The translations under genes were made by a program, and so were the position numbers. Shown here piece by piece: positions 3,019 through 20,564 of a DNA stretch of 24,000 nt; within the stretch, counting starts at the first letter, position 1, and each line of letters begins with the position of its first letter. Location of the stretch: assembly GCA_048886645.1 (NCBI GenBank), contig JBHLKN010000016.1, forward strand, positions 5,904 through 29,903, read 5' to 3'. Origin of the DNA: Candidatus Hodarchaeota archaeon. GTDB taxonomy: Archaea; Asgardarchaeota; Wukongarchaeia; Wukongarchaeales; Wukongarchaeaceae. The notes under the pieces are model-generated. The model was not told the DNA's origin. It ran no database searches and saw only the letters and a list, made by a program, of their open reading frames with translations.

Positions 3019-4179
3019 CTACAAATGAATAAGTTCACGGGGCGAATATGATAAAGGTCTACATTTTTCCCGAGTAATCACTACATTATCTTCTAATCTT
3101 ATGCCTCCAACCCCTTCTATGTAAAGCCCTGGTTCTACTGTTAACACCGAACCTGCTGGTATGGGGATTTTTGCATAAGGATCGCCTTCATTACTAAGCC
3201 TTGCTCCGACATCGTGGGTTTCTATACCAAGAGGATGTCCTAAAGCATGAATGAAAAACTTGTCAGCATCAAAACCGTGTTTTTTGAGAACTTCCCTCGC
3301 GATTTTATCTACTTCCATCCCCATTATTCCGGGTTTTAAAATTTCAATAGCCTCTTTTTTAGCGTTGTAAACCGCTTCATACATCTGCTCGAGCTTTTCA
3401 CCATCTTTTCGCCCTAGTTGGTACGTCCGCGTAATGTCTCCACAGTATCCATCCAACTTTACACCCATATCAATTAAAACTATGTCACCTTTGACTATTT
3501 TTTTCTTGCTTGTTTGATGATGGGGATAAGCGCTATTTAGACCTGAAGCAACTATTGTTTCAAAGGATGGTTCGCCCACTTTATCTATTTCGTAATTAAT
3601 CTTTGCTCCAACTTCTTTTTCAGTTACCCCCTCTTTAATGAATTCTGGCACTTTATTTTCAAATATTTCTATGGTGGCTTTTACTGCTTCTTCTATCTTT
3701 TTTATCTCTTTTGGGGTTTTTACACTTCTTAATTTTTCAAGAAAAGGAGCTGCAGACTCTAAAGAAACGTTTTCAAGAATTGTTTTCAAGCTTGTGAAAA
3801 TACCGACAGGCATCTTATCAAATCCCCCTTTCCCCTCAATAATTGAGTTTTCAACATAGTTTATAACAATTTTAGGAGTTTCACCAAGATCAGAAATCAT
3901 TTCCTTCAATTTTTCAGTAAACTTTTTCTCCCCACCATATTCTTCAACAACAAACCCTCTATCCCTCACCATTGCTCCTTCCATCCGAGTGATTAAAACC
4001 TTTACATCACCCTCTTTGGGAACAATTATCGCGTGAGTGGAATAAACACGAATGCCTAAAACAAAACGAGAATGAACATCCTCATTTTCACGAGTAACGA
4101 TTAACCAACTATCAAAACCAAACTCTTCAAGAAGACTTTGAGCCCGCTCTATTACCTCTAACTCTATATCTAACACCAA
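3019..4179 (-). CDS. M24B family Xaa-Pro aminopeptidase/prolidase
   Basis: 386 aa with pita-bread metal-ligand motifs: DMGVKLDGYCGDITRT, HALGHPLGIETHD, LTVEPGLY and GIRLEDNVVIT. A creatinase/prolidase-like N-terminal domain is present. Confidence 0.9.
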   Translation of the reverse strand: MVLDIELEVIERAQSLLEEFGFDSWLIVTRENEDVHSRFVLGIRVYSTHAIIVPKEGDVKVLITRMEGAMVRDRGFVVEEYGGEKKFTEKLKEMISDLGETPKIVINYVENSIIEGKGGFDKMPVGIFTSLKTILENVSLESAAPFLEKLRSVKTPKEIKKIEEAVKATIEIFENKVPEFIKEGVTEKEVGAKINYEIDKVGEPSFETIVASGLNSAYPHHQTSKKKIVKGDIVLIDMGVKLDGYCGDITRTYQLGRKDGEKLEQMYEAVYNAKKEAIEILKPGIMGMEVDKIAREVLKKHGFDADKFFIHALGHPLGIETHDVGARLSNEGDPYAKIPIPAGSVLTVEPGLYIEGVGGIRLEDNVVITREKCRPLSYSPRELIHL

Positions 4180-4191
4180 TAATACCTCCGG

Positions 4192-4929
4192 TCACCTGGA
4201 TAAAGGTAAGACAGGTAAAATATTGCTATTTAAAATTTTTTTAGAAGCTTTTAAAGTTCTTTTCGGAATTATACTTCTTTCTACTCCGCTCTTTTTATCT
4301 TCCAAGATTTTTAATGATTTTTCTAAATCTTTTAATGTGTCAATGTCAAGGGTCACGGAAGGATCATCATATTTTCTGAAGGGAACTTTTTCTAAGCGTG
4401 CTTTCTCCTGAAACGCTTTGAAGGATTTTCCACCAAAAACAGGCTCCATAACGTTACAAGGTTTGAACAAAACAGTAGATGTACCGCCATCGTTAGTGGG
4501 GCAAGCTACCACTACTCTTTTATAATTTTTCGCTATTTCCACCAGATCTCTGATATTTTTAATGTTAATAAGGGGTGTATCGCCCATGATAATAATAGAT
4601 TGAGTTGCAGACCTTTTTTTTGCTTCGTTTAATGCTTTCAAAACAGCAGAATTCAGATTCCTTCCATCATCTTTCAACGGCAAAAAATTCCTTTCCTTTG
4701 AAAGATCTAATAATTTATCGTCACTACTACAAACAATGATTAAATCCACAATAGATTGAGTAATAGAGCTTGATAACACGTCTAATATGTCGAGAAACAT
4801 CCCCATTATAAGTTCCTTTACAAGACTTTTATTTTCATACCCAAGCTCTACAGAAAGCCTGCTTTTACCACTATCAAGACTTCTAACCGCAACCGCCGCA
4901 ACTGTAATAGTCTTTTTTCCTGCAATCAA
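4192..4929 (-). CDS. cofC: Probable 2-phospho-L-lactate guanylyltransferase (CofC-like nucleotidyltransferase)
   Basis: N-terminal VAAVAVRSLDSGKSRLS resembles the CofC ...PVK..S.AKSRL motif, and IIIMGDTPLI is a nucleotidyltransferase-like motif. The gene lies 10 nt downstream of cofD on the same strand. TTG start. Confidence 0.65.
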   Translation of the reverse strand: MIAGKKTITVAAVAVRSLDSGKSRLSVELGYENKSLVKELIMGMFLDILDVLSSSITQSIVDLIIVCSSDDKLLDLSKERNFLPLKDDGRNLNSAVLKALNEAKKRSATQSIIIMGDTPLINIKNIRDLVEIAKNYKRVVVACPTNDGGTSTVLFKPCNVMEPVFGGKSFKAFQEKARLEKVPFRKYDDPSVTLDIDTLKDLEKSLKILEDKKSGVERSIIPKRTLKASKKILNSNILPVLPLSR

Positions 4930-4939
4930 TCTAGAATCC

Positions 4940-5875
4940 TCACACTTTTAGCACTGTTTCTGCTAGTTCTTTTTTATCATCAAGCGTCTTCATTATAGTG
5001 TTTACCGAAACAACTTCAATACCAAGCTCTTTTTCAATCCTTTTAACCATATTTTTATCCCTTTCATCTATTATTAAGCAATCTAAAAAAGATTGATAAA
5101 CTTTAGCAACACCTAAGGGGGAAACTTCAAGGTTTAAAAACTGCATAAAAGTTCCAGCAGGACCGCTTAAAGGACTATCTCCTATGATTGGAGACACAGC
5201 AACCACCTTTGCCTTCGTTTTTTCTAAAACCTCCCTAATCTCTTTTACTGCCAATATTGGACCGATACTCGTCACAGGATTGCTTGGACCGATAACAATC
5301 TTTTCAGCACAATTAATTGCTTCTAAAACACCAGGAGCTGATTTAGCGATTTCTGCACCCTTAAAGTCAATATTTAAAACCTTTAAGGATCCTTTTTCAC
5401 GCACCCACCATTCCTGAAAATGCATCCATCCTTTTTCAGTTAAAATCCTTGTTTGGATACTTTGATTACTTGCAGGAAAAATAGAAACTCTCACATTTAA
5501 AATATCACAAATAAACTTACAAGCCTCGCTTAAACGAAACCCTTTTCGTAAAAGATAGGTGCGTAAGAAACAGAAAGAAAGGTCTTTATCTCCAAGTTTA
5601 AACCAAGAATCTTCACCAATCCTCTCAAGATATCGAATAAAGTTAAAAGTATCCCCTTTTATCCCCCACATTTTTTCTCCATCAACAATTCCGGCAATAG
5701 TATACGTAATAACGTCAAGATCAGGCGAAACATAAAGATCGTATATCTCGTAATCATCGCCTACATTACTAATAACCGAAACCTCTTCGGGGCTGATTAA
5801 AGGTAAAACACCTTGGAGTAACTTGGGCGTACCAGTACCGCCAGAAAGAAAAAGTATCATGATTTCTTTCATCAA
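4940..5875 (-). CDS. cofD: 2-phospho-L-lactate transferase (F420 biosynthesis, CofD)
   Basis: N-terminal ILFLSGGTGTPKLLQGV is the signature CofD motif. Length is 311 aa and the gene is adjacent to a cofC-like gene. Confidence 0.88.
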   Translation of the reverse strand: MMKEIMILFLSGGTGTPKLLQGVLPLISPEEVSVISNVGDDYEIYDLYVSPDLDVITYTIAGIVDGEKMWGIKGDTFNFIRYLERIGEDSWFKLGDKDLSFCFLRTYLLRKGFRLSEACKFICDILNVRVSIFPASNQSIQTRILTEKGWMHFQEWWVREKGSLKVLNIDFKGAEIAKSAPGVLEAINCAEKIVIGPSNPVTSIGPILAVKEIREVLEKTKAKVVAVSPIIGDSPLSGPAGTFMQFLNLEVSPLGVAKVYQSFLDCLIIDERDKNMVKRIEKELGIEVVSVNTIMKTLDDKKELAETVLKV

Positions 5876-5879
5876 CCGC

Positions 5880-6455
5880 TCATTTTATAACGTAACGATA
5901 AGCTACTAAAACACCAGCAGTAGGGCTTTTTCTCGTAATCTTCACAACTTCCCCTGCACGCGCCCCTACAGCTCGAGCAACGGGGTCGCTCTCTTTTAGC
6001 ATAGATAACTGATTGACTTGGATTCCATACTCCTTGACTATTTTTTCCACTTCTTCTTTTGGAACTATTTCATGTTGTGGCACTAAATCATGAGCAAAAA
6101 TGTCAAAAAAGGCGTATTCGGCAGGTATAAGTTCAATATTCTCATTTCCTGAAACTTCCTTACGCGTATAGTGCGTATATTTACCCACAGTTAACAAAAA
6201 ACCATGGTCTATCTTTCTTTCTTCCATCGACTTTTGCAATTCCCTAACAAATTTAACACCAATCGTTTTAACCTTGGGCAGCCAAGCAACCACATTAATC
6301 TTCTGCCTTCCCTCTTTTTTCTCCCCTAAAATTTCGATCTTATCTCCCACATCTTCTGCGCTAACCGGGGTGTATCCTCTATTCCTAATAACAGCTTTGA
6401 TGCCCTCCACTAATCTCTCATAAACAGCTTTTTCATCAATAGAACTGATTGTCAC
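5880..6455 (-). CDS. rpoH: RNA polymerase subunit Rpo5/RpoH with a eukaryotic Rpb5-like N-terminal domain (full-length Rpb5 architecture)
   Basis: The C-terminal half, HDLVPQHEIVPKEEVEKIVKEYGIQVNQLSMLKESDPVARAVGARAGEVVKITRKSPTAGVLVAYRYVIK, matches the Rpb5/RpoH core (compare yeast HELVPKH...[36 protein letters not shown]). The N-terminal ~115 aa (IKAVIRNRGY..., IGVKFVRELQKSMEERKIDHGFLLTVGKYT) aligns with the yeast Rpb5 N-domain (VKEMVKDRGY..., [30 protein letters not shown]). GTG start. Confidence 0.85.
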   Translation of the reverse strand: MTISSIDEKAVYERLVEGIKAVIRNRGYTPVSAEDVGDKIEILGEKKEGRQKINVVAWLPKVKTIGVKFVRELQKSMEERKIDHGFLLTVGKYTHYTRKEVSGNENIELIPAEYAFFDIFAHDLVPQHEIVPKEEVEKIVKEYGIQVNQLSMLKESDPVARAVGARAGEVVKITRKSPTAGVLVAYRYVIK

Positions 6456-6656
6456 CCTAAAAACACGCCCATGTAACGTACTTTGTTAGCGTTAAGATTT
6501 TAAAACTTAACCATTAAAATCCTTTATTAAACCTATACATATTTAAAGAAAACCCAACTACTAAAATAAAAGTTGGAGAAAGAAATCAGAAACCTATACC
6601 ATCATCTCAGCTTAAAAAGCTTTAAACAGTAATAAGCTTATGGAGCGCTATAAAAA

Positions 6657-8039
6657 ATGGGTTTTAAAAACAAAGCGGTTTTAACAACAGTCTTATTTCT
6701 CTTCATTATGTTTTCCACATCTTTTTCTCACTCATTATCTAAAATTGAATCTAATCCCACGGAAAGGGAATCAATTTCCGATACCACGATACCTGAACCC
6801 GAAGATATTAAGGTTCTTGTAAATTTTGCTGCAAACGTATCTCAATATATTAACAAAACATCTGCAAGCATATTTTTAGATATGTTAGAAAATGAAACCG
6901 GTTTCGATCTCACAGTTTGGGAGAATGAAACTGTTTTTAGGACAAGTTTTACATCCATTGATTTGCAATTTTATGACGTTTTTATTCTCTTTGTTCACTC
7001 CAATTTGACTTTTACAGAGAATGCAATTAATGCATTGAAAGACTTTGTTAAAGAAGGTAAAACCCTTATGATATGTCATGCTCCAGAAAGTACAAACACC
7101 ACGACCAATATCAACAATGTGATCCAATATTTTGGCTTCAAATTCCTTGAAAATGTAACAGTAATAGATCCAGTAAATTTTGAGGACACAAACACCTCAA
7201 TAATAGCCCCATTCTTCTTAGATCAAATCCCTCAAACCCATGTTTTAAACCAAGAAAACGCCTTCCTAATATACCGTGGCATACCCATAATCACCAACAG
7301 TTCCTTAATAAACTCCACGAAACTTGAAGTAGTTGATCATTATAACTTAACATGGGCAAACGTTACCGCTTTTGCTGATAAAAACAATAACTCAGTAAAA
7401 GATTCAGGAGATATTAATGGAACGGATGTAGTTTTAGGCGTTTGCGCTGAAACAGAAAATCAGGGAAGATTTATAGGAATAGGCTCTGTTGCAATGTTTA
7501 ACAACACCTATACAAATGCCACTGGCAATTTTAGCGCTTATGAAAACCTGATGTTTGCCAATGAAACGATAAAATGGCTTGCAAAACTTACGGGCTTAGT
7601 ACTTTATGAGGATATGACCACAGATAAAGAGAAGATAACTTATGGGGAGCAGGTGAATGTTTCTGTAATAATCGAAGACGAAAACATGGAAGAAATCGTA
7701 GCAATAAACGCAAGCATCATAGTACACAAAATCGCCACAATGAACATAACAATGTTAAATATTAGTAGAACGGGAAAACAGTTCCACGCTGCCTATAACT
7801 CCACAACTTTTGAGGAAGCTGGAACGGTAGAATTTTCGGCAAACAGTTCAAAGGTTCGCGGATACACAAACATCACAACATATCCATGGATCATAGTAGA
7901 CGTTTTCCCAAAAGAAACTCCTCGAACATCTTTAAACTCCACCGCTTTAATACTCATAACCATGGCTACAATAGTAACCCTTGCAGGTCTTGGAGCTTAT
8001 GCCTTTAGAATAGCCCGTCTAAAAAAGCGCGAAAAATAA
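6657..8039 (+). CDS. Secreted, C-terminally membrane-anchored, heavily N-glycosylatable surface protein
   Basis: N-terminal signal-like segment AVLTTVLFLFIMFSTSFS. There are 26 N-X-S/T sequons by hand count in 460 aa. The C-terminal TM helix ALILITMATIVTLAGLGAYAF is followed by the basic tail RIARLKKREK. The segment YDVFILFVHSNLTFTENAINALKDFVKEGKTLMICHA looks like a ThuA/DUF4350-type flavodoxin-like module (weak). Confidence 0.75.
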   Translation: MGFKNKAVLTTVLFLFIMFSTSFSHSLSKIESNPTERESISDTTIPEPEDIKVLVNFAANVSQYINKTSASIFLDMLENETGFDLTVWENETVFRTSFTSIDLQFYDVFILFVHSNLTFTENAINALKDFVKEGKTLMICHAPESTNTTTNINNVIQYFGFKFLENVTVIDPVNFEDTNTSIIAPFFLDQIPQTHVLNQENAFLIYRGIPIITNSSLINSTKLEVVDHYNLTWANVTAFADKNNNSVKDSGDINGTDVVLGVCAETENQGRFIGIGSVAMFNNTYTNATGNFSAYENLMFANETIKWLAKLTGLVLYEDMTTDKEKITYGEQVNVSVIIEDENMEEIVAINASIIVHKIATMNITMLNISRTGKQFHAAYNSTTFEEAGTVEFSANSSKVRGYTNITTYPWIIVDVFPKETPRTSLNSTALILITMATIVTLAGLGAYAFRIARLKKREK

Positions 8040-8092: not shown

Positions 8093-8800
8093 TTGAAAGA
8101 CGAGATAGAAATGATTGAAAAAGAAGCTGCAAGAAACCTACAAGTAGGGAGATGGAAGGATGCCGGTTCTGCTTTTGAATATTTAATGCGCGAAAAAATG
8201 AAAATAAACGATTTTGAGGGAGCATTAGAAAGCGCTGCAAAAGCTTTGTTTTGTTGGCAAAAATTAGGGGATATAACACGCAGTGCAAAGTTGCTAGAAG
8301 AAACCGGCATAATGAGTTTTAAACGCGCTGCAGAATTTTTTGAAATTATTGCTAAAGAAGATAAACTTGTCTTTGAAAGGGCAGCAAAGTGCTATGCAGC
8401 CATAGGCGACACAACAAGGATGAAAAAGAGCCTAAAAAAAGCCGTAAAAATGTTTTCTGAGAAATCCGAATCCCTTATAGAAAACAATAAGTGCGAAGAA
8501 GCACTAAGATGGTTGGAAGGCGCTATTCGCTGTTATAAAAAACTTGGAGATAAAGAAAACACTAAAAAATCCCTCACCCATAAAGCAGAATGCCATGAAA
8601 AACTTGCAAAAGAATTCCAAAAAAAGAAGGGAGTGGAGAACGAATATTTAGCAGCAAGAGAATATGAAAACGCTGCAAAAACATACAAAAAATTAAGAAA
8701 AAGAAAAAAAACAAACGAGATGCTAGAAAAAAGCAAAAAAGCAAAAGAAAAAGCAGAAAAAGAATATCAAGGGGAATTTGACCCCCTATCAACCCTTTAA
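8093..8800 (+). CDS. TPR-like helical-repeat protein with Lys-rich C-terminal tail
   Basis: Four recurring hairpin motifs of type AAK.Y..(L/I)GD...: AAKALFCWQKLGDITRSAK, AAKCYAAIGDTTRMKK, AIRCYKKLGDKENTKK and AAKTYKKLRKRKKT. The tail is KKAKEKAEKE. Start is TTG 8093 or ATG 8111. Confidence 0.6.
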   Translation: MKDEIEMIEKEAARNLQVGRWKDAGSAFEYLMREKMKINDFEGALESAAKALFCWQKLGDITRSAKLLEETGIMSFKRAAEFFEIIAKEDKLVFERAAKCYAAIGDTTRMKKSLKKAVKMFSEKSESLIENNKCEEALRWLEGAIRCYKKLGDKENTKKSLTHKAECHEKLAKEFQKKKGVENEYLAAREYENAAKTYKKLRKRKKTNEMLEKSKKAKEKAEKEYQGEFDPLSTL

Positions 8801-8876: not shown

Positions 8877-10214
8877 ATGCATAAGCACGGGGAGAAATTA
8901 CCCCTCATCTCAGCTGGCTTTAAATATCTCCTTAAGAAATTAAATAGTGGTGAAACTTTGAGGTTCAAGAAAAGTATATTGCTTAACTGTCTGCCTTTAA
9001 CTGCTAAAAAAGAACAGATTCTCGATAGTTTTTTTATTGAATATCTCGAAGTCCTCAATAAAACCCTTAAACATTTACCGGAGGCCAAGTCTTCTACCGA
9101 ACTGCACCATCTAACATATTCAAACATACGCAAAACATCCTTCCTTCCATCTGATATTATCCAAGAAGCTCGAAAGGATGTTTGGGCTAAGAGAAAAACT
9201 GTTAAGAGCGGTTTTAAAGGATGCTCTATCAGACTTAATAAAAGGTGGTTCAGACTCTTTGAAACTTTTAGAGGTACTCCGTGTTTCAAGATCACTTATT
9301 CTCCTCGCAAAAGCTTTGTAATCCCTGTTAAGCTTGACAAAGGTTATGAGAGGTTCAAAGAGTTTCTTGAAGATAGTTGGAAAATTAAGTGCATTTCCCT
9401 CCTTAATGGTGGCAAGATTGCGGTTTGTATTGAGAAAGATTTTCCCGAACCTTCTAATAAAAAAAGAAGATATATTATTGGGATCGATATCGGTTCTTCC
9501 ACCCTTGCGGCGGTAACTGTTTTTGATTCTAACACTTATAAAGTAGCTAAACAACTTTACTTTGGAAGAGGCGTCGCTAAAAGTCAGAGGAGATACGAAG
9601 AAAGAAGGGGTAAACTTCAAAGTTATGCTGATAAAGGCTCTAAAAAAGCCAAGAAATACTTGAGAAGGATTAAAATTAAACAGAGAAACTTTGTTAAGAC
9701 AAGAAGCGGGCAGATAGCTAAGGAAATTGTTAATCTTGCCCTTGAGAATAACGCTTCTATTTCAATTGAAAAGCTTAGTATTAGGGGGAAGAAGCGTAAG
9801 TTTAACAGGAAGGCTAACAGGAAGATTAACCGCATTCCTTACGCTCAGTTCAGAGAGTTTCTTAAAAGTAACTGCATTAAACACGGTATCCCTCTTCGCG
9901 AAATTGATTCTTACCACACTTCCAAATGGTGTCCTCACTGCGGTGCAGTAAACAAAGGACGCTCATCTCCTAACTACGCTTTGTATATCTGTAAGAACTG
10001 CGGTTTGGTTGTGAATAGCGATAGAAAAGCCTCCTTGGCTATAGCTATAAAATCCCTCTTGCAGCAGACATCAAACCAAGGCTTCAAAAGACCTTCTTTT
10101 GTCCAGATTTCCAAGAGAAGAGTCCCTGTAAACGGACTCGTTCATCCAGATGATGAGGGTTTGAGTTTTGCTGTACAACATATCACCCCTCAAATGGAAA
10201 GCTCCTTCCGTTAG
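8877..10214 (+). CDS. tnpB: TnpB/OrfB RNA-guided-nuclease-type transposon protein (RuvC + zinc ribbon)
   Basis: 445 aa with RuvC-I YIIGIDIGSSTLA (D), RuvC-II ASISIEKL (E), zinc ribbon CPHCG...CKNCG and RuvC-III VVNSDRKASLAIA (D). The N-terminal half is typical of the archaeal OrfB_IS605 type. Confidence 0.9.
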   Translation: MHKHGEKLPLISAGFKYLLKKLNSGETLRFKKSILLNCLPLTAKKEQILDSFFIEYLEVLNKTLKHLPEAKSSTELHHLTYSNIRKTSFLPSDIIQEARKDVWAKRKTVKSGFKGCSIRLNKRWFRLFETFRGTPCFKITYSPRKSFVIPVKLDKGYERFKEFLEDSWKIKCISLLNGGKIAVCIEKDFPEPSNKKRRYIIGIDIGSSTLAAVTVFDSNTYKVAKQLYFGRGVAKSQRRYEERRGKLQSYADKGSKKAKKYLRRIKIKQRNFVKTRSGQIAKEIVNLALENNASISIEKLSIRGKKRKFNRKANRKINRIPYAQFREFLKSNCIKHGIPLREIDSYHTSKWCPHCGAVNKGRSSPNYALYICKNCGLVVNSDRKASLAIAIKSLLQQTSNQGFKRPSFVQISKRRVPVNGLVHPDDEGLSFAVQHITPQMESSFR

Positions 10215-10805: not shown

Positions 10806-12407
10806 TTGAGGACGAGAGATGGTCGCAATGGCGAAGTTGTTCATTGTGCTTTTTGTGGTGATGCATTTTCTATAGATCTTCTGCTTTTTTGCAGAAGTTG
10901 TGGCGCGATTATCTGTTGTAAATGCTTGAAAAGGGATTATTTCAAAGCGTTTTTCTGTAGTTATTGTTCTGCCCTCGTCCCAGAAGAGACTATTTTCTGC
11001 CCTGTTTGTAGACGTAGAAGTGAAAAAAAACAGGGAAATACCACCATCAGGATGTGTCCTAGTTGTCTTTCTAGAGATATCCATCCGGTAATCGAGGAAA
11101 GAAAATTTTTAGTTATTTCCTTCCGTGACCTAGTATTAAAGTTGAGACATGAGTTTACAAATATAGCAGACTTTGTTTCAGTCTTTAACTCTGTTATAAA
11201 TCGGGGAATTTTACTGCGTAAAAATAACTTTTTACACTATCCGATTATTGAACGGTCATTGAACGATATCCATAAAGGTTTTCCGACTTGCTTAAAAGAA
11301 CTTGAAGAAGTAACCACTTATACGGCAAGAAGCCTCGCGCAACATGTTCTCGCCTTCTCCCGACCTACCCAAATGAGTCCCCTTGATCTAAAAGCTAATT
11401 TTACAGTTCGAAAAACATTATCAGACGAAGTAGAAGTTTTTGAAAATCTAGTCTCGCGAAAATTAGGCTTTTTTTCCGATCGTTTAAAACAGGCTGAAAG
11501 ATCTGTGAAAAGGATGGAAAAAACAAAGACTGTTTTTGATAAATTATCAAGGTTCATCGAGATAATGCCAGGTGAATCGCCTGTTTACATATATCGATAT
11601 AAAAAAATTGCTAACACTCCAAGAAACATCAATCTAAAAAAAGGCAGAGGATATATTATTTTAACAGATCAACGAATAATTTTTGTGCCCCTAAAAGGGA
11701 TAAATCTCAAAACTGGAGAGAAAAGCCAGACTGATTCATCAAACTTTTACGCTTTAGATCTTGAAAAAACTCACATGATAGACGTGACAAAACACTTTTT
11801 TTCACGTAAAAAAGTGATTTTTAGGACCGAGGAAGGCGAGTACGTGTTTTTATTTTCTACAAGAGAAGTTGGTAGACTTAAAGACGCTTTCAAGTTTTCT
11901 AAGAAATATCATGATTACACTTCCAAAAATAGTTCTTTTCTCGAACAATTAGCCCGTGATAAAATAAATATAGACCCCTTCAAAAAGAGAATTGAAAAAT
12001 ACATCGATCATATTCTTTTCCCGCTTGGTTTAAGCCAAAAACAAATCTTCGGAGATATTAAAGACGATTATTACCCGTTTGATTTCGTTGATTTTTCAGA
12101 TATAACCCATTTGGAAAATAATTATCACGCGATTATCAAAGTTTTAAACAAACTGGATGAAAAATTTCAAAGAGGCGAAATAAACAGCCCCGAATATATG
12201 CGTCAAATGAATTATTATAGAAATCTTTTAGAAAGTAATTATTACGGGATTATCAAAGTGTTAAACGCTCTCCATGATAGATTTGAAAGAGGTGAAATAA
12301 ACGGCCCTGAATATATGCGGAACATCAAACATTATAATCAGCAAAAGTTTATTATTAGAAGAGAATTAGAACGTAGAAAAGCACGCTTTGGGAGTCCATT
12401 CGCATAA
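10806..12407 (+). CDS. Multidomain protein: N-terminal FYVE/PHD-spaced Cys8 zinc finger plus an extra zinc ribbon, helical linker, GRAM/GLUE-like PH domain, two SHOCT-like C-terminal repeats
   Basis: CAFCGDAFSIDLLLFCRSCGAIICCKC...CSYC has FYVE spacing (compare EEA1 [28 protein letters not shown]...CDAC) but lacks the basic RRHH motif. Further CPVC...CPSC follows. KGRGYIILTDQRIIFVP ... KKVIFRTEEGEYVFLFSTREVGRLKDAFKF fits the GRAM/PH pattern. The 40-aa repeats IIKVLNKLDEKFQRGEINSPEYMRQ and IIKVLNALHDRFERGEINGPEYMRN are SHOCT-like. TTG start. Confidence 0.8.
   Translation: MRTRDGRNGEVVHCAFCGDAFSIDLLLFCRSCGAIICCKCLKRDYFKAFFCSYCSALVPEETIFCPVCRRRSEKKQGNTTIRMCPSCLSRDIHPVIEERKFLVISFRDLVLKLRHEFTNIADFVSVFNSVINRGILLRKNNFLHYPIIERSLNDIHKGFPTCLKELEEVTTYTARSLAQHVLAFSRPTQMSPLDLKANFTVRKTLSDEVEVFENLVSRKLGFFSDRLKQAERSVKRMEKTKTVFDKLSRFIEIMPGESPVYIYRYKKIANTPRNINLKKGRGYIILTDQRIIFVPLKGINLKTGEKSQTDSSNFYALDLEKTHMIDVTKHFFSRKKVIFRTEEGEYVFLFSTREVGRLKDAFKFSKKYHDYTSKNSSFLEQLARDKINIDPFKKRIEKYIDHILFPLGLSQKQIFGDIKDDYYPFDFVDFSDITHLENNYHAIIKVLNKLDEKFQRGEINSPEYMRQMNYYRNLLESNYYGIIKVLNALHDRFERGEINGPEYMRNIKHYNQQKFIIRRELERRKARFGSPFA
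12117..12356 (+). repeat. Intragenic 120-nt (40-codon) tandem duplication encoding the two SHOCT-like modules
   Basis: NNYHAIIKVLNKLDEKFQRGEINSPEYMRQMNYYRNLLES is followed by NYYGIIKVLNALHDRFERGEINGPEYMRNIKHYNQQKFII. The similarity is also visible at the DNA level (attatcaaagt[t/g]ttaaac..., agaggcgaaataaacagccccgaatatatgcg versus agaggtgaaataaacggccctgaatatatgcg). Confidence 0.85.
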
Positions 12408-12607
12408 GAATTTAAAAGTAAAAGTTAACAAACAAGATGTTTATCGCCCTTACCCTACCCGGCTCATATAAAACTCCGCTAATAGGCATCTATAGCAATT
12501 TATTCCTTCCCTTCCCTAAATGAGCCTAGTTACAGTATTAAAATAAAAAAATGTTTTCGACTTTTATTCGGCGTTTTTGAATTTTATACTTTTTTGTTTA
12601 GGATTTT

Positions 12608-13300
12608 TTATTGGGAAGACGATTCTAATTGTTTTTTTAGAAGTTTTAGCTCCTTTTCTACTTCTGCTTCTTCTGCTTCCAGTTTTTCTTTGTCTACTAC
12701 ACGGGTTTCTTTTGGTCTTTCTACGGAGGTTCTGGATACGGGTTCAGTAGTTACTGCTTCTGCTCCCACAAGTTGCTTTTCCATAGCGGCGATCTCTGCA
12801 TCAATAGCGTCTTCTATTTCTAGCTCAAGTTCTGCTTCGGCAGAAGTAACATCAGCAAGGGCTTCATCAGCCATAGAAGCCCTTTCCATCCCCTCTTCAA
12901 GACGTACCATAAGTTCTTCTGTTACTTCCGGTCCCACTTCCCTCAAACCCTCATTTATAACTATATCTGCCTCTCTGAGAGCGCCACTAAGCTCAATATT
13001 ATCTTTCACAGTTTCGATGGTCTCTATTATACGATTCATGTTAAGGATTTTATTCTCTGTACTTTCAAGCTTCTTAAGGTAAAGCTGTCTCCTCAATAAA
13101 GATTTTTTTGCTCCCATCTTATTGCCATCACGAAGCATTTCCATAGCTAACGAACGTTGTTCATCCGCTTTACGCCTTATGGCCCTTGATTTAAGTTCAA
13201 AACGATTTATAACAGCCCTAAGCTTAGCTATGGTTTCTGATGGTTTTCTTCTTTTATCCCCAAAGAGAAAATTCTTAATGCCCATTATCAAAATCTCCAT
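12608..13300 (-). CDS. ESCRT-III protein, Snf7 family (Vps20/32/60 = CHMP4-7-like)
   Basis: The N-terminus MGIKNFLFGDKRRKPSETIAKLR resembles CHMP6/Snf7 N-termini. A basic helical hairpin (RKADEQRSLAMEMLRDGNKMGAKKSLLRRQLYLKKLE) is followed by an acidic C-terminal half and the terminal amphipathic helix EKELKLLKKQLE. ATG at 13300 or 13285. Confidence 0.85.
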   Translation of the reverse strand: MEILIMGIKNFLFGDKRRKPSETIAKLRAVINRFELKSRAIRRKADEQRSLAMEMLRDGNKMGAKKSLLRRQLYLKKLESTENKILNMNRIIETIETVKDNIELSGALREADIVINEGLREVGPEVTEELMVRLEEGMERASMADEALADVTSAEAELELEIEDAIDAEIAAMEKQLVGAEAVTTEPVSRTSVERPKETRVVDKEKLEAEEAEVEKELKLLKKQLESSSQ

Positions 13301-13417
13301 CTAAAAAATACTGAAGACAAACAACAATCACTTAAACTATTTTTTTATTAGTCTTAAGGATTATTTTTCCTAATGTATTAAAGATAGCTGTAACTAAAAA
13401 GGGTTTCTATTTTTCTA

Positions 13418-16141
13418 TTATGTTCTTCCTTCAATTACTCTTTTTAATTCAGAAACAACAGAAAGATTCGGAGGACTTATCGTAAATACAATTTCAAGAC
13501 CATCCTCTAAAAGAGCAAAAATAATCCCAAGTTTCATCCCTCCTCTGTCAAAAATAACCGTAGGAAACTTCTCATCTTCCTGGATCTTTACTATTTTCCA
13601 CTCAACGTCCCTAATGCGTGAAATAACAATAGAGGCACTATTTGACCCTGTTAAACCTAATTTTATCGAGGAAACCTCGTAAGGTAGAATCCTACCGTCC
13701 TTGCTTTTTGCCACGGCGTCGGTAAAATGGGGATACAAAAGTTTACGTTTTAAAAAATCTTTAAGGAGACTTTTCGGCACATCACTCGGAGATATAATTG
13801 AAATCCCTCTCATAACATCAGTCTCATCCTCCACCATAACCTTTACTTCACTAGGAGGAGTAGGAGCTTCAACATCAATATCGACCATACCCTCTTCCTC
13901 TAGAACTTCGGAAACAAGTTCCAGAACCTCTTCAATGGGGGATGGTTCGGGTTTTTCCTCCATCTTCGGCCTGGCTTCTCTCCCAGCATGCATAGAAGAC
14001 CTAGCCCTTATCGCTACAACAATCGCCCTATCCGACTCTTTATCAGAAACTATGGCGACTCCTACCGGGAGTCTTCTTACAAAATCCGCGCTTTTTAACT
14101 CATCAGGTATAGGGGAAGGCGCACGTTTTATATACGCTTTCACATCATCTTCATAGGTTAAAGTGTGCACAATCATTAAATCCGCTTGGGATAATACCCT
14201 TGGATCTGTTGCACTTGGTTGTTGAGTACAAACTAACAAGGCGCAACCTGGTTTCCGTCCTTGTTTCGCATATTCAACTATGGGTATGCTTGCTGCTGTT
14301 TCCTTTCTTGAAGGTACAAGAAGGTGTGCTTCATCTATCGCAAGCCAAGTAAAAGGTATTTCCTCCCTTCTCATCTCTTGGACTTCTTTCCCCACCTCTA
14401 CTAACATTTCTTCTGTTTCCTCATACCTTGCAGCTTTTGTCCTCTCTCTAAGGATTTTACGCGCTAGTATACCCACAAAAAGTGCACGCAAACCCTCCCC
14501 TAACCTCGGATGGCTGACATCAATAACCGTTACCTGATTTGGAACGCTCAACTCTGTTAAAGGCGTGCCCACTTCAGCAAAAACCCCCCACTTTTTCGCA
14601 GAATTAAGCCTTGCAACCGCCGCTCTCTGCGTAGTTCTTGAAAATCCTACAGTCTTTGACGATATATCAACATCCCTTTCAATACACCTTGTTAAGTCAT
14701 CAATAGTGAAGTTTTCCTTCCCTTCAACCGCTACTTGTTCGCCTTCTTCAAATTCAGCTATATAGCCTTTCTTCGCTTTATCTATAGCTTGAGCTATAAG
14801 CAGTCCTTGGGGTCCAAACCTATCAATCCCAAAAGAGTGGCACCAATCATCAACTGAAAGCTCAGAAGCAGATATTGAAAACCTAGCGTCCCAACTTTCA
14901 GGGGGAAAATCAGAAGCAAGCTCTATCGGCACATACACCTTAGTATTCGGGTAACCCTTGGGTCTCATACCCCACTTTTCAAGGATCTCGATCTCTTTCT
15001 TCTCAACATTGCAATGTTTCATAGAATAAAAAACGCCTAGAGGATCAATTACTATGATTCCTATACCCAGATTCGATCGCGCTAACTCTTCAGCCAAAAC
15101 CCCCATCGTATAACTCTTACCACTACCCCTATGACCGCAAATAAAAACAACGTACGGAAAACCAGCGTTAATAACAACAGACTTTCCATAAATCTCTTCC
15201 ATCTCCCCGACATCGCTTGTTTTCATACCCTTTTCTGCAACCCTCCCTATGAAAAGGGCTCCTTTACATCCTACACCTTTCTTTACTTTAAACTTTTTAC
15301 CTAAAACCACTGCATCTTTTAACGGCGTATACCTCGGCTTTGAAGGAGCTTTTACGAGATACTTCCTTTCCTCAAGCAGTTTCGACCAATAACTATCCAA
15401 TCCTTCGCTAACCAGAAGCTCCCCTTCTACCGCTCCAAAACCCCACCTTAACCACTCAACTTCCTCCTTCCCTTCCATTCTTTTCGCTATCTCGTTCCTT
15501 GAAACAATCTCTGCGGGATAAAATTTCGGATCACAACCACTAACGTCCCATAAAATAATGTCTAACTTCACGTTTAAATCTTTAAAAGCTCCCTCATTAT
15601 CGCCCTTATTAAGCGAAGCGAGCGAACTATAAGCTTTTTCTAAAAGATCTTTCTCCTGGGTTACAATATAGAGGGCGCATAGACCCCTAACCTTATTTTC
15701 CCCTTCTAATCCTTCAGTGATTTTCTGGGCTATAGCCAAATCTTCTTCTTTTTCTGTTAAAAGATAGGAAAAAGATAAACCCATAACTGCTGGCCAATCC
15801 TTTCCTTCTTTACGGAAAAACTCTGAAGCGTTTTCAAAAATTTCTTTTTGAACCTCCACAACTTCCCTTGCATAAAATAAAGCTCTTAAAGAATGGGCGG
15901 AAAAAAGCTCTAAATCATCCCCTTCTTCTGTAAAGAAGCTTCCATCTGCTTCCTGCCGTGTTAAAAGCCCAAATACTACCTCTTGCATTCTTGCTTTAAT
16001 CCATTCCTCTCCAGTAACTTTGTAAGCATGAAATAACGCTTCAAAAAAAGAAGGACGAACCCTCTCTTCCACTCGATCCAATCTCTCTAAACTCTCAGTG
16101 AGGGGTGGAAGTATCTGACATAAAGGCCTTCCTATCTCCAA
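13418..16141 (-). CDS. 907-aa HerA/FtsK-superfamily (COG0433/DUF87-like) P-loop ATPase with novel N- and C-terminal domains
   Basis: Walker A FICGHRGSGKSYTMG (about 15113-15136) and Walker B FTWLAIDEAHLLVP. HerA-type distal motifs are KQGRKPGCALLVCTQQPSATDPRVLSQADLMIVHTL and RARSSMHAG. The N-terminal ~290 aa are helical repeats (one QEADGSFF terpenoid-cyclase/prenyltransferase-like turn). An acidic linker precedes a ~130-aa alpha/beta C-terminal domain. TTG start (uncertain). Confidence 0.85.
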   Translation of the reverse strand: MEIGRPLCQILPPLTESLERLDRVEERVRPSFFEALFHAYKVTGEEWIKARMQEVVFGLLTRQEADGSFFTEEGDDLELFSAHSLRALFYAREVVEVQKEIFENASEFFRKEGKDWPAVMGLSFSYLLTEKEEDLAIAQKITEGLEGENKVRGLCALYIVTQEKDLLEKAYSSLASLNKGDNEGAFKDLNVKLDIILWDVSGCDPKFYPAEIVSRNEIAKRMEGKEEVEWLRWGFGAVEGELLVSEGLDSYWSKLLEERKYLVKAPSKPRYTPLKDAVVLGKKFKVKKGVGCKGALFIGRVAEKGMKTSDVGEMEEIYGKSVVINAGFPYVVFICGHRGSGKSYTMGVLAEELARSNLGIGIIVIDPLGVFYSMKHCNVEKKEIEILEKWGMRPKGYPNTKVYVPIELASDFPPESWDARFSISASELSVDDWCHSFGIDRFGPQGLLIAQAIDKAKKGYIAEFEEGEQVAVEGKENFTIDDLTRCIERDVDISSKTVGFSRTTQRAAVARLNSAKKWGVFAEVGTPLTELSVPNQVTVIDVSHPRLGEGLRALFVGILARKILRERTKAARYEETEEMLVEVGKEVQEMRREEIPFTWLAIDEAHLLVPSRKETAASIPIVEYAKQGRKPGCALLVCTQQPSATDPRVLSQADLMIVHTLTYEDDVKAYIKRAPSPIPDELKSADFVRRLPVGVAIVSDKESDRAIVVAIRARSSMHAGREARPKMEEKPEPSPIEEVLELVSEVLEEEGMVDIDVEAPTPPSEVKVMVEDETDVMRGISIISPSDVPKSLLKDFLKRKLLYPHFTDAVAKSKDGRILPYEVSSIKLGLTGSNSASIVISRIRDVEWKIVKIQEDEKFPTVIFDRGGMKLGIIFALLEDGLEIVFTISPPNLSVVSELKRVIEGRT

Positions 16142-16251
16142 AAGCCTAACACTCCTATAAAACCAAATAAACCCTAAAAGGCGTTAAGTGATGCCTACTA
16201 TTCTATTCAATGTATAAGGAGAAAAGAGGTTAATAGAACTTTATTAAAGTT

Positions 16252-16872
16252 TCAACTCTCCTCTTCGCGTAAACGTTCTAATTCTTCCTTAATCTCTTTC
16301 TCCCTTGCTGATGGGGTAGGAAGACCGTGTTCTGTAGTTACGCTTACAACCGCCCCTGCTTCCCCAAGAATTCTTGTAACTTCTGCATCGTCAATATCCG
16401 CACTTAAAGCTCCTTCAAGTTCCACATCAATAGCTTCTGTTGAAACTTCAATACCAGTAAGACCTTCTTCTAAAGCATCTATATATCTACTTAGTTGGGG
16501 AAGTCTAAGCGAACGGTTAAGTTGCCTAAGAGATATAGCCAAACCCTTCATATCTTTTGCAAGACTCTGAACAGCCTCCGTATGCTCCATCTTAGCAATA
16601 ATTCCCTTAAGCCTAGAATTCAACCTCGCACAACCCAAAGCAAAACGCCTACTCCTTACAACGTCTTGAGCATAGACTTTCGCAGCCTCCATGTCCCCCT
16701 GTTCTACAGACCTCCTAACCTCTTTCATCATCTTATTCTCGTCCTTCTTCAACTTCATGCGTTGCCTTTCAATCCTACGTTCTATCAACCTAAGGCGAAT
16801 AATCCAATCACGAGTACTACGACCACCCATCAACCAATTAACAAACTTACCGAAAACCAATGAAATCACCAA
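16252..16872 (-). CDS. ESCRT-III protein, Vps2/24/46 (CHMP1-3-like) family
   Basis: IERRIERQRMKLKKDENKMMKEVRRSVEQGDMEAAKVYAQDVVRSRRFALGCARLNSRLKGI matches the CHMP2/Vps2 alpha1-alpha2 hairpin pattern. The C-terminal half is acidic and ends in EIKEELERLREEES (MIM1-like). Hydrophobic N-terminus SLVFGKFVNWL. Start is TTG 16872, GTG 16869 or ATG 16830. Confidence 0.85.
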   Translation of the reverse strand: MVISLVFGKFVNWLMGGRSTRDWIIRLRLIERRIERQRMKLKKDENKMMKEVRRSVEQGDMEAAKVYAQDVVRSRRFALGCARLNSRLKGIIAKMEHTEAVQSLAKDMKGLAISLRQLNRSLRLPQLSRYIDALEEGLTGIEVSTEAIDVELEGALSADIDDAEVTRILGEAGAVVSVTTEHGLPTPSAREKEIKEELERLREEES

Positions 16873-16942
16873 CTATTCTTATAATATTAATATTGTTTAA
16901 AATATATTAAGGATTACCGTTCCTAAAAATATCTTTAATCTA

Positions 16943-17641
16943 TCATATTTTTAAAGCTTTTATAATCTCTGAGGGAAAACCTTTTTGCGTAATCTTTTCA
17001 AAGTTAACAATCTTGAAACCTACATACTCCACAAAGGGTTTTACTTGAACTGAACGACAACCACCTATTGTGTGAGGGAAAAACCGGTATAAAAGGGACC
17101 AAAAAGCGTTGAAGATAGGATTTCCACAAGTCATGTTCACTAAAACCATGCGCCCTCCTTTTCTCATAACCCGATTAAACTCTCGTAAAATAGGGAAAAA
17201 ATCCTTTACAGGGATTAAATCAAGCATATAGCTATTAATAACAACATCAAAAGCTTCATCTGTAAAAGGAAGACTACGAGCATCTGCCATCAAAAACTCA
17301 TAACTCTCCCTTGCAGCATCCTTCACTCTTTTCTTAGACATTCTAAGCATTTTACCCGAAATATCAACTCCTACATTCAATCCTTCTTCATTCATTTTCA
17401 AAATTTCAGAAAAATTCTTACCAGTGCCACAAGCCACTTCCAAAACCTTTTCCCTCCCTTTAATTTCAACTAAAGAGAGAGCCCTACTATGAGCCTTTGA
17501 TTCCGCAAACCGGCTCCAAAAATCGTAATGAGGCGCAAGGATATCGTAAGTCCGGGCAACCTCTTTTTTTGAAACTTTTGCTTTAAGCATATAAGACACC
17601 TCTTTTAACACAATATCTATATTCGTAATATGATGATTCAT
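16943..17641 (-). CDS. Class I SAM-dependent methyltransferase (UbiE/Methyltransf_11-like)
   Basis: Motif I VLEVACGTGKN, post-I GVDISGKML and motif II/III FDVVINSYML ... GGRMVLVN. The gene is co-oriented with and immediately upstream of the ESCRT-III / ATPase / ESCRT-III string. Confidence 0.82.
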   Translation of the reverse strand: MNHHITNIDIVLKEVSYMLKAKVSKKEVARTYDILAPHYDFWSRFAESKAHSRALSLVEIKGREKVLEVACGTGKNFSEILKMNEEGLNVGVDISGKMLRMSKKRVKDAARESYEFLMADARSLPFTDEAFDVVINSYMLDLIPVKDFFPILREFNRVMRKGGRMVLVNMTCGNPIFNAFWSLLYRFFPHTIGGCRSVQVKPFVEYVGFKIVNFEKITQKGFPSEIIKALKI

Positions 17642-17713
17642 TTTTTTTACATTTAATTTTTATAAAATATTGAACTAATATGTAAATAATAAGTTAATTC
17701 TTTCTATCAGTTT

Positions 17714-18880: not shown

Positions 18881-18883
18881 ATT

Positions 18884-19618
18884 TTGAGAAAGAGAAAAAC
18901 AGGAATATTGAAAAAGTGGCATGAAATAGCTGAAAAATTTGCAAAGGAAACAGATGTCCAATTAGAAGATCGCATTATTTTTTCATGGGATAATTTCAAA
19001 GAAAGGATTCTTTCTTTGAAAAATCGTTTGGGGTTTAGTGGTGAAACTTTAGACTTTTTGGGCTATTCGGTTGATCTAAACACTGGGGGCGTAGTTGACC
19101 GTTTACTTGACTATACCTTGGATAAAAATCCTTTTGTCAGTTATCTGGCTTATTATTCTGAATCTTTTGAGACTGTTTTGGATGAGGATAGGTGGATTAA
19201 GTTCCGGCATTTGCCTGGCGGTGTATCGTTTGAAAATGCTTTTAGGGTTCAGGTTGAGGGATGGATTTTAAACCGTTTTTTAGAAGATGATGAAGACATT
19301 TTGAGAGATGAGAAGATAGCAGAAAAGGCTTTAGTTTTAATCGGGGCTAAGCGTGAGAAGTTTGGCGATTTTTCCTTTTCTATTAACACCTTGCCCCGTG
19401 TAACGCTTGCCGTTGTTTATAATGAAGGTGTTGAAGAGTTTGAGCCAAATGTTTCGGTTTTTTTTAAAGAATCTGCTCAATATTACCAGCCTACCGAGCT
19501 TCTAGCTCACCATGGAGTACTGCCTATGGTTGCTTTTGAACGGGCTAGAAGAGCGGTTTTAGGCTTTGAAGAAAGCGGTTTGCCGCAGTTTATTAGTAAA
19601 TATTTACGGTTTGATTAA
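18884..19618 (+). CDS. Uncharacterised protein, DUF3786-like by motif pattern; starts 4 nt after the vps4 stop
   Basis: 244 aa with a TTG start 4 nt after the vps4 stop codon. WIKFRHLPGGVSFENAF and FGDFSFSINTLPRVTLAVVYNEGVEEFEPNVSVFFKESAQYYQPTELLA recall the DUF3786 pattern (..W.GDEEF....lFD.sa..yl.tEdl), recalled from memory. The basic N-terminal helix is MRKRKTGILKKWHEIAEKFAK. Confidence 0.6.
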   Translation: MRKRKTGILKKWHEIAEKFAKETDVQLEDRIIFSWDNFKERILSLKNRLGFSGETLDFLGYSVDLNTGGVVDRLLDYTLDKNPFVSYLAYYSESFETVLDEDRWIKFRHLPGGVSFENAFRVQVEGWILNRFLEDDEDILRDEKIAEKALVLIGAKREKFGDFSFSINTLPRVTLAVVYNEGVEEFEPNVSVFFKESAQYYQPTELLAHHGVLPMVAFERARRAVLGFEESGLPQFISKYLRFD

Positions 19619-20509: not shown

Positions 20510-20564
20510 CATCAGGTTTTTTTAACACGTAACATTTTTTATTTCTTAATGTCATTTTCTTTTC

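Follow-up and report, generated by a model that had tools for sequence, protein, structure and literature searches.

A long form of archaeal RNA polymerase subunit H whose N-terminal domain is a probable counterpart of the eukaryotic Rpb5 jaw

Subunit H of the archaeal RNA polymerase (RNAP), known as RpoH or Rpo5, is classically a single domain of ~75-85 amino acids (aa), as in 1hmj, 2waq_H, 4qiw_H and 8cro_H (77-84 aa). Its eukaryotic counterpart, Rpb5 (RPABC1/POLR2E), which belongs to Pol I, II and III and to plant Pol IV/V, is composed of an N-terminal jaw domain (PF03871), a short hinge and an RpoH-type C-terminal domain (PF01191). Here, we describe a gene for a long form of Rpo5 in a 24,000-nucleotide stretch of DNA from a Candidatus Hodarchaeota archaeon of the lineage Wukongarchaeia (assembly GCA_048886645.1, contig JBHLKN010000016.1, positions 5,904 to 29,903; hereafter, the window, in whose own numbering all of its positions are given). 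The 191-codon open reading frame (ORF) at 5880..6455 on the minus strand is free of interruptions, and its product has the identical two-domain order and short hinge of Rpb5. The C-terminal 75 aa are those of a canonical archaeal RpoH, yet they are preceded by an additional folded domain of 116 aa, of a type that subunit H lacks in the solved archaeal RNAPs. We consider it likely that the gene encodes RNAP subunit H in a long, two-domain form, and that its N-domain is inactivated and homologous to the jaw domain of Rpb5.

In Pol II, the N-domain of Rpb5 has been described as a guard rail (PMC3479171), and its TPSA loop touches downstream DNA (PMC6690254). In Sulfolobales and Desulfurococcales, this place is taken by Rpo13, which occupies a crevice beside Rpo5 and binds downstream double-stranded DNA (PMC3479171). 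Rpo13 is a functional analog of the N-domain and not a homolog, being an unrelated small helix-turn-helix-like protein encoded by its own gene and limited to some Thermoprotei (PMC13257274).

A preceding sequence-only reading of the window regarded the N-domain as one that is usually called eukaryote-specific, which is indeed how the Rpb5 domain is presented (PMC3479171, PMC3424549, PMC3906176, PMC6690254); likewise, a 2012 survey of PD-(D/E)XK proteins gives its taxonomic range as "Eukaryota". The literature searched holds that archaea lack the domain, and we found no description of an N-domain of archaeal Rpo5 in the full-text-searchable literature, including the supplements of Eme et al. 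2023; subscription-only papers and tables may differ. There is no mention of it in PMC7289017, PMC13556214, PMC10307638 and supplements, or the preprint by Liu et al., and PMC13257274, which models Asgard Rpo5, is silent on any N-domain. The long-form sequences themselves are already public, labelled just 'RNA polymerase subunit H'.

The two domains of the long Rpo5

The C-terminal domain matched Pfam RNA_pol_Rpb5_C (PF01191) over the entire profile (residues 117-189, profile positions 1-73 of 73, E=3.6e-27, 94.4 bits with a cut-off of 23.5), and the protein passed the RpoH equivalog NCBIfam NF007129 (99.3 bits with a cut-off of 83). In the PDB, its sequence was matched best by subunit H chains of archaea, 77-84 aa in length (E=7e-23 to 1e-16), among them M. 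jannaschii subunit H (1hmj, E=6.7e-23); every Rpb5 was more distant in this search (5e-17 or weaker, compared to 7e-23 for archaeal RpoH). Comparing folds with Foldseek, the domain superposed on the solved subunits 7oqy_H, 8cro_H, 4qiw_H and 2waq_H with a TM-score (TMt) of 0.76-0.82, a root-mean-square deviation (rmsd) of 2.3-3.0 Å and 40-46% identity.

An AlphaFold2 (AF2) model of the full-length protein, built on a 17-sequence alignment, showed a predicted local distance difference test score (pLDDT) of 82-95 for aa 11-110 and below 50 for aa 117-126, with a predicted TM-score (pTM) of 0.58. When modeled alone, the N-domain reached a pLDDT of 88.6 and a pTM of 0.80. Its predicted topology is alpha-beta-beta-beta-alpha-beta-alpha-beta (helices at 8-25, 67-79 and 95-101; strands at 29-36, 39-48, 51-60, 84-88 and 107-110), and contains the alpha-beta-beta-beta-alpha-beta core fold of Mrr_cat and other PD-(D/E)xK proteins. 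In line with this fold, Pfam assigned the N-domain to Mrr_cat (PF04471; E=1.2e-8, 35.5 bits with a gathering score of 21) and to the 'inactive REase' family NA-iREase1 (PF22722; E=2.5e-5).

When the whole model was searched with Foldseek, the first 35 matches were full-length Rpb5 chains from Pol I, II, III, IV and V and from African swine fever virus (ASFV) (E=3e-13 to 1e-7, 200-218 columns; yeast Rpb5 1dzf, E=6e-11, 215 columns), in agreement with a two-domain Rpb5 architecture in which a jaw-like N-domain of PD-(D/E)xK fold precedes an RpoH-type C-domain. Short archaeal RpoH (1e-6, through the C-domain only) and the nuclease MspJI (1e-4) ranked below. The viral Rpb5 of Nucleocytoviricota (ASFV, 8q3b_E/8q3k_E; E~2e-10) has two domains like the window protein and is derived from or related to eukaryotic Rpb5, yet it is much more divergent from the archaeal forms (17% identity), with a sequence match to the window protein that runs through the C-domain. 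Superposition of the full-length model on Rpb5 gave a TM-score of ~0.55 and an rmsd of ~6 Å, and the single domains fitted better: alone, the N-domain reached TM-scores of 0.65-0.70 with Rpb5, compared to 0.61 with MspJI, 0.57 with AF1548 and 0.55 with AspBHI.

To compare the N-domain with Rpb5_N by sequence, profiles were used from which the C-domain had been removed. A profile of ten Asgard-type N-domains retrieved 11 Rpb5 chains as its leading PDB matches (E=1e-7 to 2e-3), all in the correct register, and no Mrr-like nuclease at E<=10. Aligned by hhalign with four eukaryotic Rpb5 N-domains, the Asgard N-domains gave a probability of 96.5% (E=1e-9, 89 columns). Of these four queries, those of S. 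pombe, yeast and human were verified residue by residue against PDB chains, and that of Arabidopsis was checked by its match to 7eu0_E (E=6e-61). By group, the hhalign E-values were 8e-10 for non-Wukong Asgard, 1.3e-5 for Bathyarchaeia and 7e-4 for Wukong sequences, with reversed controls at 0.3-0.5. The composition of the profile was decisive: a single-sequence PDB search with aa 1-120 returned noise (a PhoB receiver domain, E=0.37), and a first, Bathyarchaeia-dominated profile placed Rpb5 at the top but weakly (E=0.008; hhalign 24.6%) before the profile was rebuilt from Asgard-type sequences.

In the opposite direction, a hidden Markov model (HMM) of eukaryotic Rpb5_N gave positive scores for all 33 archaeal N-domains (3.7-41.6 bits), with 30 of them at 10.4 bits or above and 19.1 bits for the window type, compared to at most 4.5 bits for reversed controls. 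The Pfam model RNA_pol_Rpb5_N (PF03871) directly matched three of ten Asgard N-domains, weakly (best E=7.3e-4); a genuine eukaryotic Rpb5_N scores 121.6 bits on it (E=2.3e-35). Conversely, eukaryotic Rpb5_N matches Mrr_cat poorly (two of the four sequences, best E=0.0026), while archaeal N-domains reach 2e-9. By this difference in Mrr_cat matches, the archaeal N-domain is intermediate between Mrr-type nucleases and Rpb5_N. By the hhalign E-values, the Wukong type is among the less Rpb5-like of the archaeal versions.

A joint alignment located the positions that the archaeal and eukaryotic forms have in common, namely RGY, P....VG[IV] at the beta-3/helix-2 junction, the T of the TPSA loop and, in the last strand, the E of IE.F. 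The archaeal RGY, in which R26 and Y28 are invariant, corresponds to the DRGY of Rpb5, and P60 aligns with the P of eukaryotic 'FFPEEP'. IGVKFVREL, with the nearly invariant G66, is equivalent to the eukaryotic 'VG[IV]KT[MI]K' block. Where eukaryotic Rpb5 has its TPSA loop, the window protein reads THYTRK; T94 is invariant in Asgard-type sequences, where the loop takes the form T-H-Y-[AT]-[KR]-K, and that of some Bathyarchaeia reads TPSAK. E108 of IELI is invariant in the archaeal forms and conserved in Rpb5 (IETF/LEQF/LEVF). What the archaeal forms lack, in all of the long sequences aligned and as a gap in the hhalign alignment, is a helical insertion of ~21 aa that follows RGY in eukaryotes (between helix 1/strand 1 and strand 2); together with a few residues before the last strand, it accounts for the window protein being ~20-25 aa shorter than Rpb5. 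From the profiles and motifs, we conclude that the archaeal N-domain is a homolog of Rpb5_N, in a minimal version without this insertion.

These comparisons bear on the sequence-only reading, which had seen an alignment to yeast Rpb5 from one end of the protein to the other. The motifs that it quoted are present (RNRGY, aa 24-28; IGVKFVREL, aa 65-73; GFLLTVG, aa 85-91), and at the level of fold and profile the alignment holds, well beyond chance; by pairwise sequence, it covers only aa 64-188 (aa 54-190 with Arabidopsis Rpb5). It had further named a better score to nucleases than to Rpb5_N, combined with the lack of a structural match to the jaw, as evidence that would count against it. Here the outcome was divided, as the N-domain on its own hits Mrr_cat and not Rpb5_N, while structurally it does match the jaw.

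Mrr_cat and NA-iREase1 proteins share their core fold with the window N-domain, which has structural matches to MspJI, AspBHI and AF1548, yet Mrr_cat nucleases carry a D on beta-2 and a (D/E/Q)xK motif on beta-3, and the long RpoH N-domains have no conserved catalytic lysine. The catalytic site was mapped by inspecting three alignments (17, 10 and 10 long forms), with no Mrr alignment as a reference. The invariant N-domain residues were R26, Y28 and E108, to which the Asgard type adds G18, G66, R71 and T94, and none of them coincides with a canonical catalytic position of strand 2 or 3. Strand beta-3 reads NVVAWLP, IIARFP or LIWCIP, with neither the (D/E/Q)xK lysine nor a conserved acidic residue, and the beta-2 D/E is retained by most Asgard forms (E41 in the window protein). 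Since the catalytic positions on strands 2 and 3 are not conserved, the N-domain is probably catalytically dead as a nuclease.

Distribution and origin of the long form

A first homolog search returned 22 proteins with an extension N-terminal to the RpoH domain; their lengths are 119-191 aa, and for the majority 165-191 aa. One protein in the public databases is 99% identical to the window Rpo5, and relatives from other assemblies are 86-87% identical and likewise 191 aa long; the nearest genomic relative, Ca. Wukongarchaeum yapensis, has an 87% identical Rpo5 and a conserved gene order. In a scan of one genome per species, all of the best 80 loci considered held long forms. Five were from Asgard archaea (Wukong-, Sif-, Heimdall-, Hod- and Hermodarchaeota), one was from an unclassified 'uncultured archaeon', and the rest (>70) were from Bathyarchaeia.

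A full-length Asgard profile found 131 proteins, with named long forms of 166-213 aa in Hodarchaeales, Heimdallarchaeota (one on a 3.16-Mb contig), Kariarchaeaceae, Odinarchaeota, Hermodarchaeota and Promethearchaeota, and next retrieved true eukaryotic Rpb5 (wheat, E=7e-30, 98% query coverage). Genuine short RpoH of 71-85 aa were found in Methanococci, Thermoprotei, Thermoplasmatota, DPANN and Nitrososphaerales. When the N-domain was searched against 1.84 billion representative proteins, its relatives were the N-domains of other long RpoH and nothing else, with no stand-alone nuclease among them; thus, among the relatives found, and in distinction from Mrr_cat nucleases, the window-type N-domain is always fused to RpoH. 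Altogether, the two-domain architecture recurs in >100 protein clusters from independent assemblies.

This distribution qualifies the proposal of the sequence-only reading that the protein is one more eukaryotic signature protein in the genome that bears the ESCRT (endosomal sorting complex required for transport) locus. The genome is indeed an Asgard genome and the gene lies 4.4 kb from the ESCRT locus, but the long form is also found in >70 Bathyarchaeia species genomes and is therefore not a clean Asgard-eukaryote synapomorphy.

Two candidates for short paralogs, P0060 (Wukongarchaeota, 82 aa) and P0078 (Bathyarchaeota), turned out to be truncated gene calls of intact TTG-start ORFs of 191 and 183 aa, respectively. 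In GCA_030587675.2 (Wukongarchaeota, L081), rpoH is annotated at 4081-4329 (82 aa) within an intact 191-aa ORF at 3754-4329, and in GCA_026414525.1 (Bathyarchaeota, L083) it is annotated at 5001-5249 (82 aa) within an intact 183-aa ORF at 4698-5249. The clipped annotations leave an 'intergenic' gap of ~530 bp, and may be caused by a choice of start site guided by the 80-aa RpoH model. Where only the 82-aa RpoH core is annotated, as in at least two GenBank assemblies, the N-domain is concealed from surveys.

As to how the long form arose, we lean towards the following account. An inactivated Mrr-type nuclease domain was fused to RpoH in an Asgard ancestor, which shared or exchanged it with Bathyarchaeia; the fusion became the Asgard norm and was inherited by eukaryotes, which gained the ~21-aa insertion. 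The Pol II-like 'guard rail' would then already have been archaeal, and have gone unreported partly through the clipping of annotations. It is most likely that the domain arose in archaea before eukaryotes; the archaeal N-domain is probably the evolutionary precursor of the Rpb5 jaw, and eukaryotic Rpb5 may plausibly descend directly from a long form of Asgard archaea. By hhalign, the N-domains of the archaeal groups belong to a single family (E=1e-16 to 2e-27 between groups), and in a distance-based neighbor-joining (NJ) tree of long Rpo5 and Rpb5 with 200 bootstraps, the eukaryotes are monophyletic (99%), on a long branch, and not nested.

Several observations weigh against this account or against the identification of the protein on which it builds. 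The window protein has no match to Pfam RNA_pol_Rpb5_N (gathering score 27 bits) at E<=10 and scores better on Mrr_cat; a Wukong-only profile, made of five near-identical sequences, gave an hhalign probability to Rpb5_N of 26.6%; and by Foldseek E-value, the N-domain alone finds MspJI (7e-5) marginally before Rpb5 (2e-4). The interdomain orientation is poorly predicted, as reflected by the full-length pTM and the linker pLDDT given above. In the NJ tree, the attachment point of the eukaryotes has a bootstrap of 52%, and the scores of Asgard and Bathyarchaeia sequences on the eukaryotic Rpb5_N HMM overlap. Lastly, the window rpoH is not located beside rpoB/rpoA, and is instead followed by cofD and cofC. 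Other Asgard loci likewise have a long rpoH unlinked from rpoB/rpoA, and judging by the accession numbers in PMC13257274, this appears to be the general condition of Asgard rpoH.

Regarding the tree itself, a placement of eukaryotes in a particular Asgard lineage (e.g., Hodarchaeales) was considered and dropped, as neither the NJ tree nor the per-sequence HMM scores resolve it. The Wukong and Sif long Rpo5 join Bathyarchaeia (68%) and not the other Asgard sequences, a grouping that could reflect slow evolution, ancient transfer or an artefact of the distance method. The idea that Heimdallarchaeia/Kariarchaeaceae have two paralogs of the long form (types a and b of the tree) was not supported, since the two come from different assemblies and partly share the ancestral neighborhood. 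The type b proteins (P0031, P0033, P0035 and P0154) are 234-295 aa in total, with long acidic or basic/Q-rich C-terminal tails and a divergent C-domain, in which, e.g., IVRNPELGEDGYYYRYV replaces ITRKSPTAG..YRYV; they are also the top scorers on the eukaryotic Rpb5_N HMM, with up to 41.6 bits.

A different history, in which a Mrr-type domain was fused to RpoH independently in archaea and in the eukaryotic stem, deserves the most attention among the alternatives. Mrr-like domains are mobile and frequently fused to other proteins, Pfam assigns most archaeal N-domains to Mrr_cat/NA-iREase1 and not to Rpb5_N, and the Foldseek E-values of the N-domain are alike for MspJI and Rpb5. However, the Asgard N-domain profile selects Rpb5 alone among PDB sequences and no solved Mrr-like nuclease, the search of 1.84 billion proteins returned RpoH N-domains only, and the TM-scores to Rpb5 exceed those to nucleases. 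Moreover, archaeal and eukaryotic forms have in common not only a fold but motifs (RGY, FP..P.VG[IV]K, T..A[KR] and IE.F), domain order and hinge length. Because of this profile specificity and these shared motifs, we regard convergent fusion as unlikely.

The long protein could also be a paralog with a role outside the polymerase (e.g., in DNA targeting or defense), while a separate short RpoH serves the RNAP. The N-domain does belong to a nuclease superfamily, and the gene lies outside the rpoB/rpoA operon in the window and in other Asgard genomes. Yet the C-domain clears the cut-off of the curated RpoH equivalog, the N-domain shows no conservation of the catalytic (D/E/Q)xK motif, defense-gene context is absent, and the 82-aa RpoH records of Wukongarchaeota and Bathyarchaeota are, as described above, truncated calls of the long ORF and not second genes. 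In Bathyarchaeota CP070791 (L060), furthermore, the long form holds the rpoH slot of the classical operon, directly followed by rpoB (Rpb2_6/7) and rpoA (Rpb1_1-5). A paralog of this kind is therefore improbable.

Transfer in the reverse direction, in which Asgard archaea acquired an Rpb5 gene from (proto-)eukaryotes that later spread to Bathyarchaeia, has in its favor that proto-eukaryotes and Heimdallarchaeia have been proposed, in general terms, to have exchanged genes (PMC12395588), and that the NJ tree permits the eukaryotes to branch anywhere among the archaeal long forms. It is at odds with a C-domain that is nearer to archaeal RpoH than to Rpb5, with an N-domain that is more Mrr-like than that of eukaryotes and has no eukaryotic insertion, as fits an ancestral state, and with a eukaryotic clade that is monophyletic and not nested. 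At least eight Asgard lineages with conserved synteny and the Bathyarchaeal rpoH-rpoB-rpoA operon fit vertical descent. On account of the archaeal C-domain, the Mrr-like, insertion-free N-domain and the archaeal synteny and operon, we consider such a transfer very improbable.

Finally, a join of two adjacent genes by sequencing or assembly error, which the sequence-only reading had listed as a possible refutation, or an over-extended start, might be suspected from the non-ATG starts (GTG in the window, TTG in relatives) and from NCBI records that call the last 82 aa only, but is dismissed, given an uninterrupted ORF, an architecture repeated across those >100 clusters of independent assemblies and sources (which excludes a sequencing-error fusion), conservation that spans the junction and reaches the N-terminus (MTISSIDEKAV), and an N-terminal part that AF2 folds confidently.

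Gene neighborhood of the long rpoH

The features of the gene and of its surroundings are collected in Table 1. The TATA-box-like element sits within a divergent intergenic region of 201 bp (6456-6656). Downstream of rpoH, the order rpoH-cofD-(x)-cofC recurs on a Kariarchaeaceae contig (L084, 6603-7532 and 8305-8928), which suggests that the rpoH-cofD-cofC arrangement is old and possibly co-transcribed. An OST48-like gene is the neighbor of the long rpoH in Wukong, Hod, Hermod, Heimdall and Kari genomes (L001, 10-1392; L048, 6707-7972; L055, 6707-7972; L004, 1111-2478; L085, 1235-2518; L086, 8721-9980), divergently oriented in Wukong and in tandem downstream elsewhere. This conserved micro-synteny of the OST48-like gene and of CofD-CofC across Asgard archaea argues for orthology of the long rpoH genes.

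Table 1. Features of the long rpoH gene and of its neighborhood in the window
Feature	Position	Strand	Details
Long-form rpoH/Rpo5 gene	5880..6455	-	Complete, 191 aa; GTG start 6455-6453, TGA stop 5882-5880; from ORF list and sequence
N-terminal domain, aa 1-116	6108..6455	-	PD-(D/E)xK (restriction-endonuclease) fold; AF2, Foldseek, Pfam, hhalign, PDB profile search
RGY motif (R26-G27-Y28)	6372..6380	-	End of helix 1; alignments
Strand beta-3, aa 51-60	6276..6305	-	QKINVVAWLP; AF2 secondary structure and joint alignment
IGVKFVREL (I65-L73)	6237..6263	-	Start of helix 2; alignments, including HMMER alignments to Drosophila, human and Arabidopsis Rpb5
THYTRK loop (T94-K99)	6159..6176	-	Positional equivalent of the Rpb5 TPSA loop; joint alignment, invariant-residue lists
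IELI (I107-I110)	6126..6137	-	Last N-domain strand; alignments
Hinge, aa 117-126	6078..6107	-	FDIFAHDLVP; low model confidence
C-terminal RpoH/Rpb5_C assembly domain, aa 117-191	5883..6107	-	PF01191, NF007129, PDB, Foldseek
RKSPTAG motif, aa 175-181	5913-5933	-	Inside the C-domain; sequence
TATA-box-like element (tentative)	6498..6505	-	TTTTAAAA; ~46 nt upstream of the GTG start; read from sequence
cofD	4940-5875	-	F420 biosynthesis; 4 bp past the rpoH stop, same strand
cofC	4192-4929	-	F420 biosynthesis; after cofD, same strand
OST48_N-like membrane protein	6657-8039	+	Weak IFT52-GIFT and ABC_transp_aux matches too
235-aa ORF	8093-8800	+	Sub-threshold SNAP similarity (E=8e-4, 19.4 bits, cut-off 25)
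TnpB/Cas12f-like ORF	8877-10214	+	OrfB_IS605 and Cas12f1-like TNB; between the rpoH/OST48-like region and the ESCRT locus
Vps23-core protein	10806-12407		ESCRT locus
Snf7, first	12608-13300	-	ESCRT locus
HerA/DUF87-like ATPase	13418-16141	-	907 aa
Snf7, second	16252-16872	-	ESCRT locus
Vps4	17714-18880		ESCRT locus
ESCRT-II subunit	19751-20509		ESCRT locus
Family B DNA polymerase	20565-23177		

The neighboring genes, i.e., those for Vps23-core, ESCRT-II, two Snf7 proteins, Vps4 and the OST48-like protein, confirm the Asgard origin of the window. The ESCRT locus (10806-23177) is interleaved with other genes: a methyltransferase gene lies between the second Snf7 gene and Vps4, a DUF3786 gene lies between Vps4 and ESCRT-II, and the two Snf7 genes are, unusually, separated by the large HerA-like gene. 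The 235-aa ORF with similarity to SNAP (soluble NSF attachment protein) probably encodes just a helical repeat of the tetratricopeptide repeat (TPR) type.

Adjacency to rpoB was also considered as a general test of rpoH loci and set aside, as rpoH is preceded by nrdD/nrdG-like genes at most Bathyarchaeia loci and followed by genes that vary; at L003, the large downstream ORF is a subtilase. Upstream of rpoH at this locus, on the same strand, Pfam identified NrdD (708 aa) and a radical-SAM activase-like gene (225 aa). ORF pairs of similar size (705-710 and 225-230 aa) lie ~3 kb upstream at L006, L007, L020, L035 and many other Bathyarchaeia loci, with only the L003 pair identified by Pfam. At the operon locus of CP070791 (L060, 8279-12505), the Rpb1 (rpoA) frame is apparently unsplit and runs into a Pyr_redox_2-like segment (aa 1255-1390), which may stem from an artefact of assembly or frame, or represent an unusual fusion.

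Proposed role in the polymerase and implications

We infer that the long Rpo5 is built into the RNAP of this organism. Its C-terminal 75 aa would dock on the largest subunit, as RpoH assembly domains ordinarily do, and the inactivated nuclease-fold N-domain would guide downstream DNA, as Rpb5 does in Pol II, filling the space that Rpo13 holds in Sulfolobus. While eukaryotic Rpb5 is shared by several polymerases, the window Rpo5 would serve a single archaeal RNAP. A role of the N-domain like that in Pol II is most likely, by analogy, because the anchoring C-domain has been conserved, the hinges are comparable in length and a loop equivalent to TPSA is still present; the same analogy suggests where on the polymerase the N-domain would be located and that the archaeal THYTRK loop may contact DNA. 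The Bathyarchaeial N-domains are strongly basic (net charge of +8 to +11), which fits DNA binding, and those of Asgard archaea are near neutral, with +2 for the window protein.

The label of eukaryote-specific domain has served as an argument that eukaryotes evolved a hold of their own on downstream DNA. On the account favored here, the origin of the jaw domain, which belongs to a subunit shared by Pol I, II and III, would shift back into archaea, a step that is incremental insofar as Asgard archaea are already the group to which many 'eukaryotic' features have been traced. The N-domain of the long RpoH would also supply the missing intermediate between Mrr-type nucleases and Rpb5_N, and the lower jaw of the Asgard and Bathyarchaeial polymerases is predicted to be more Pol II-like than that of the solved Sulfolobus, Thermococcus and Pyrococcus enzymes.

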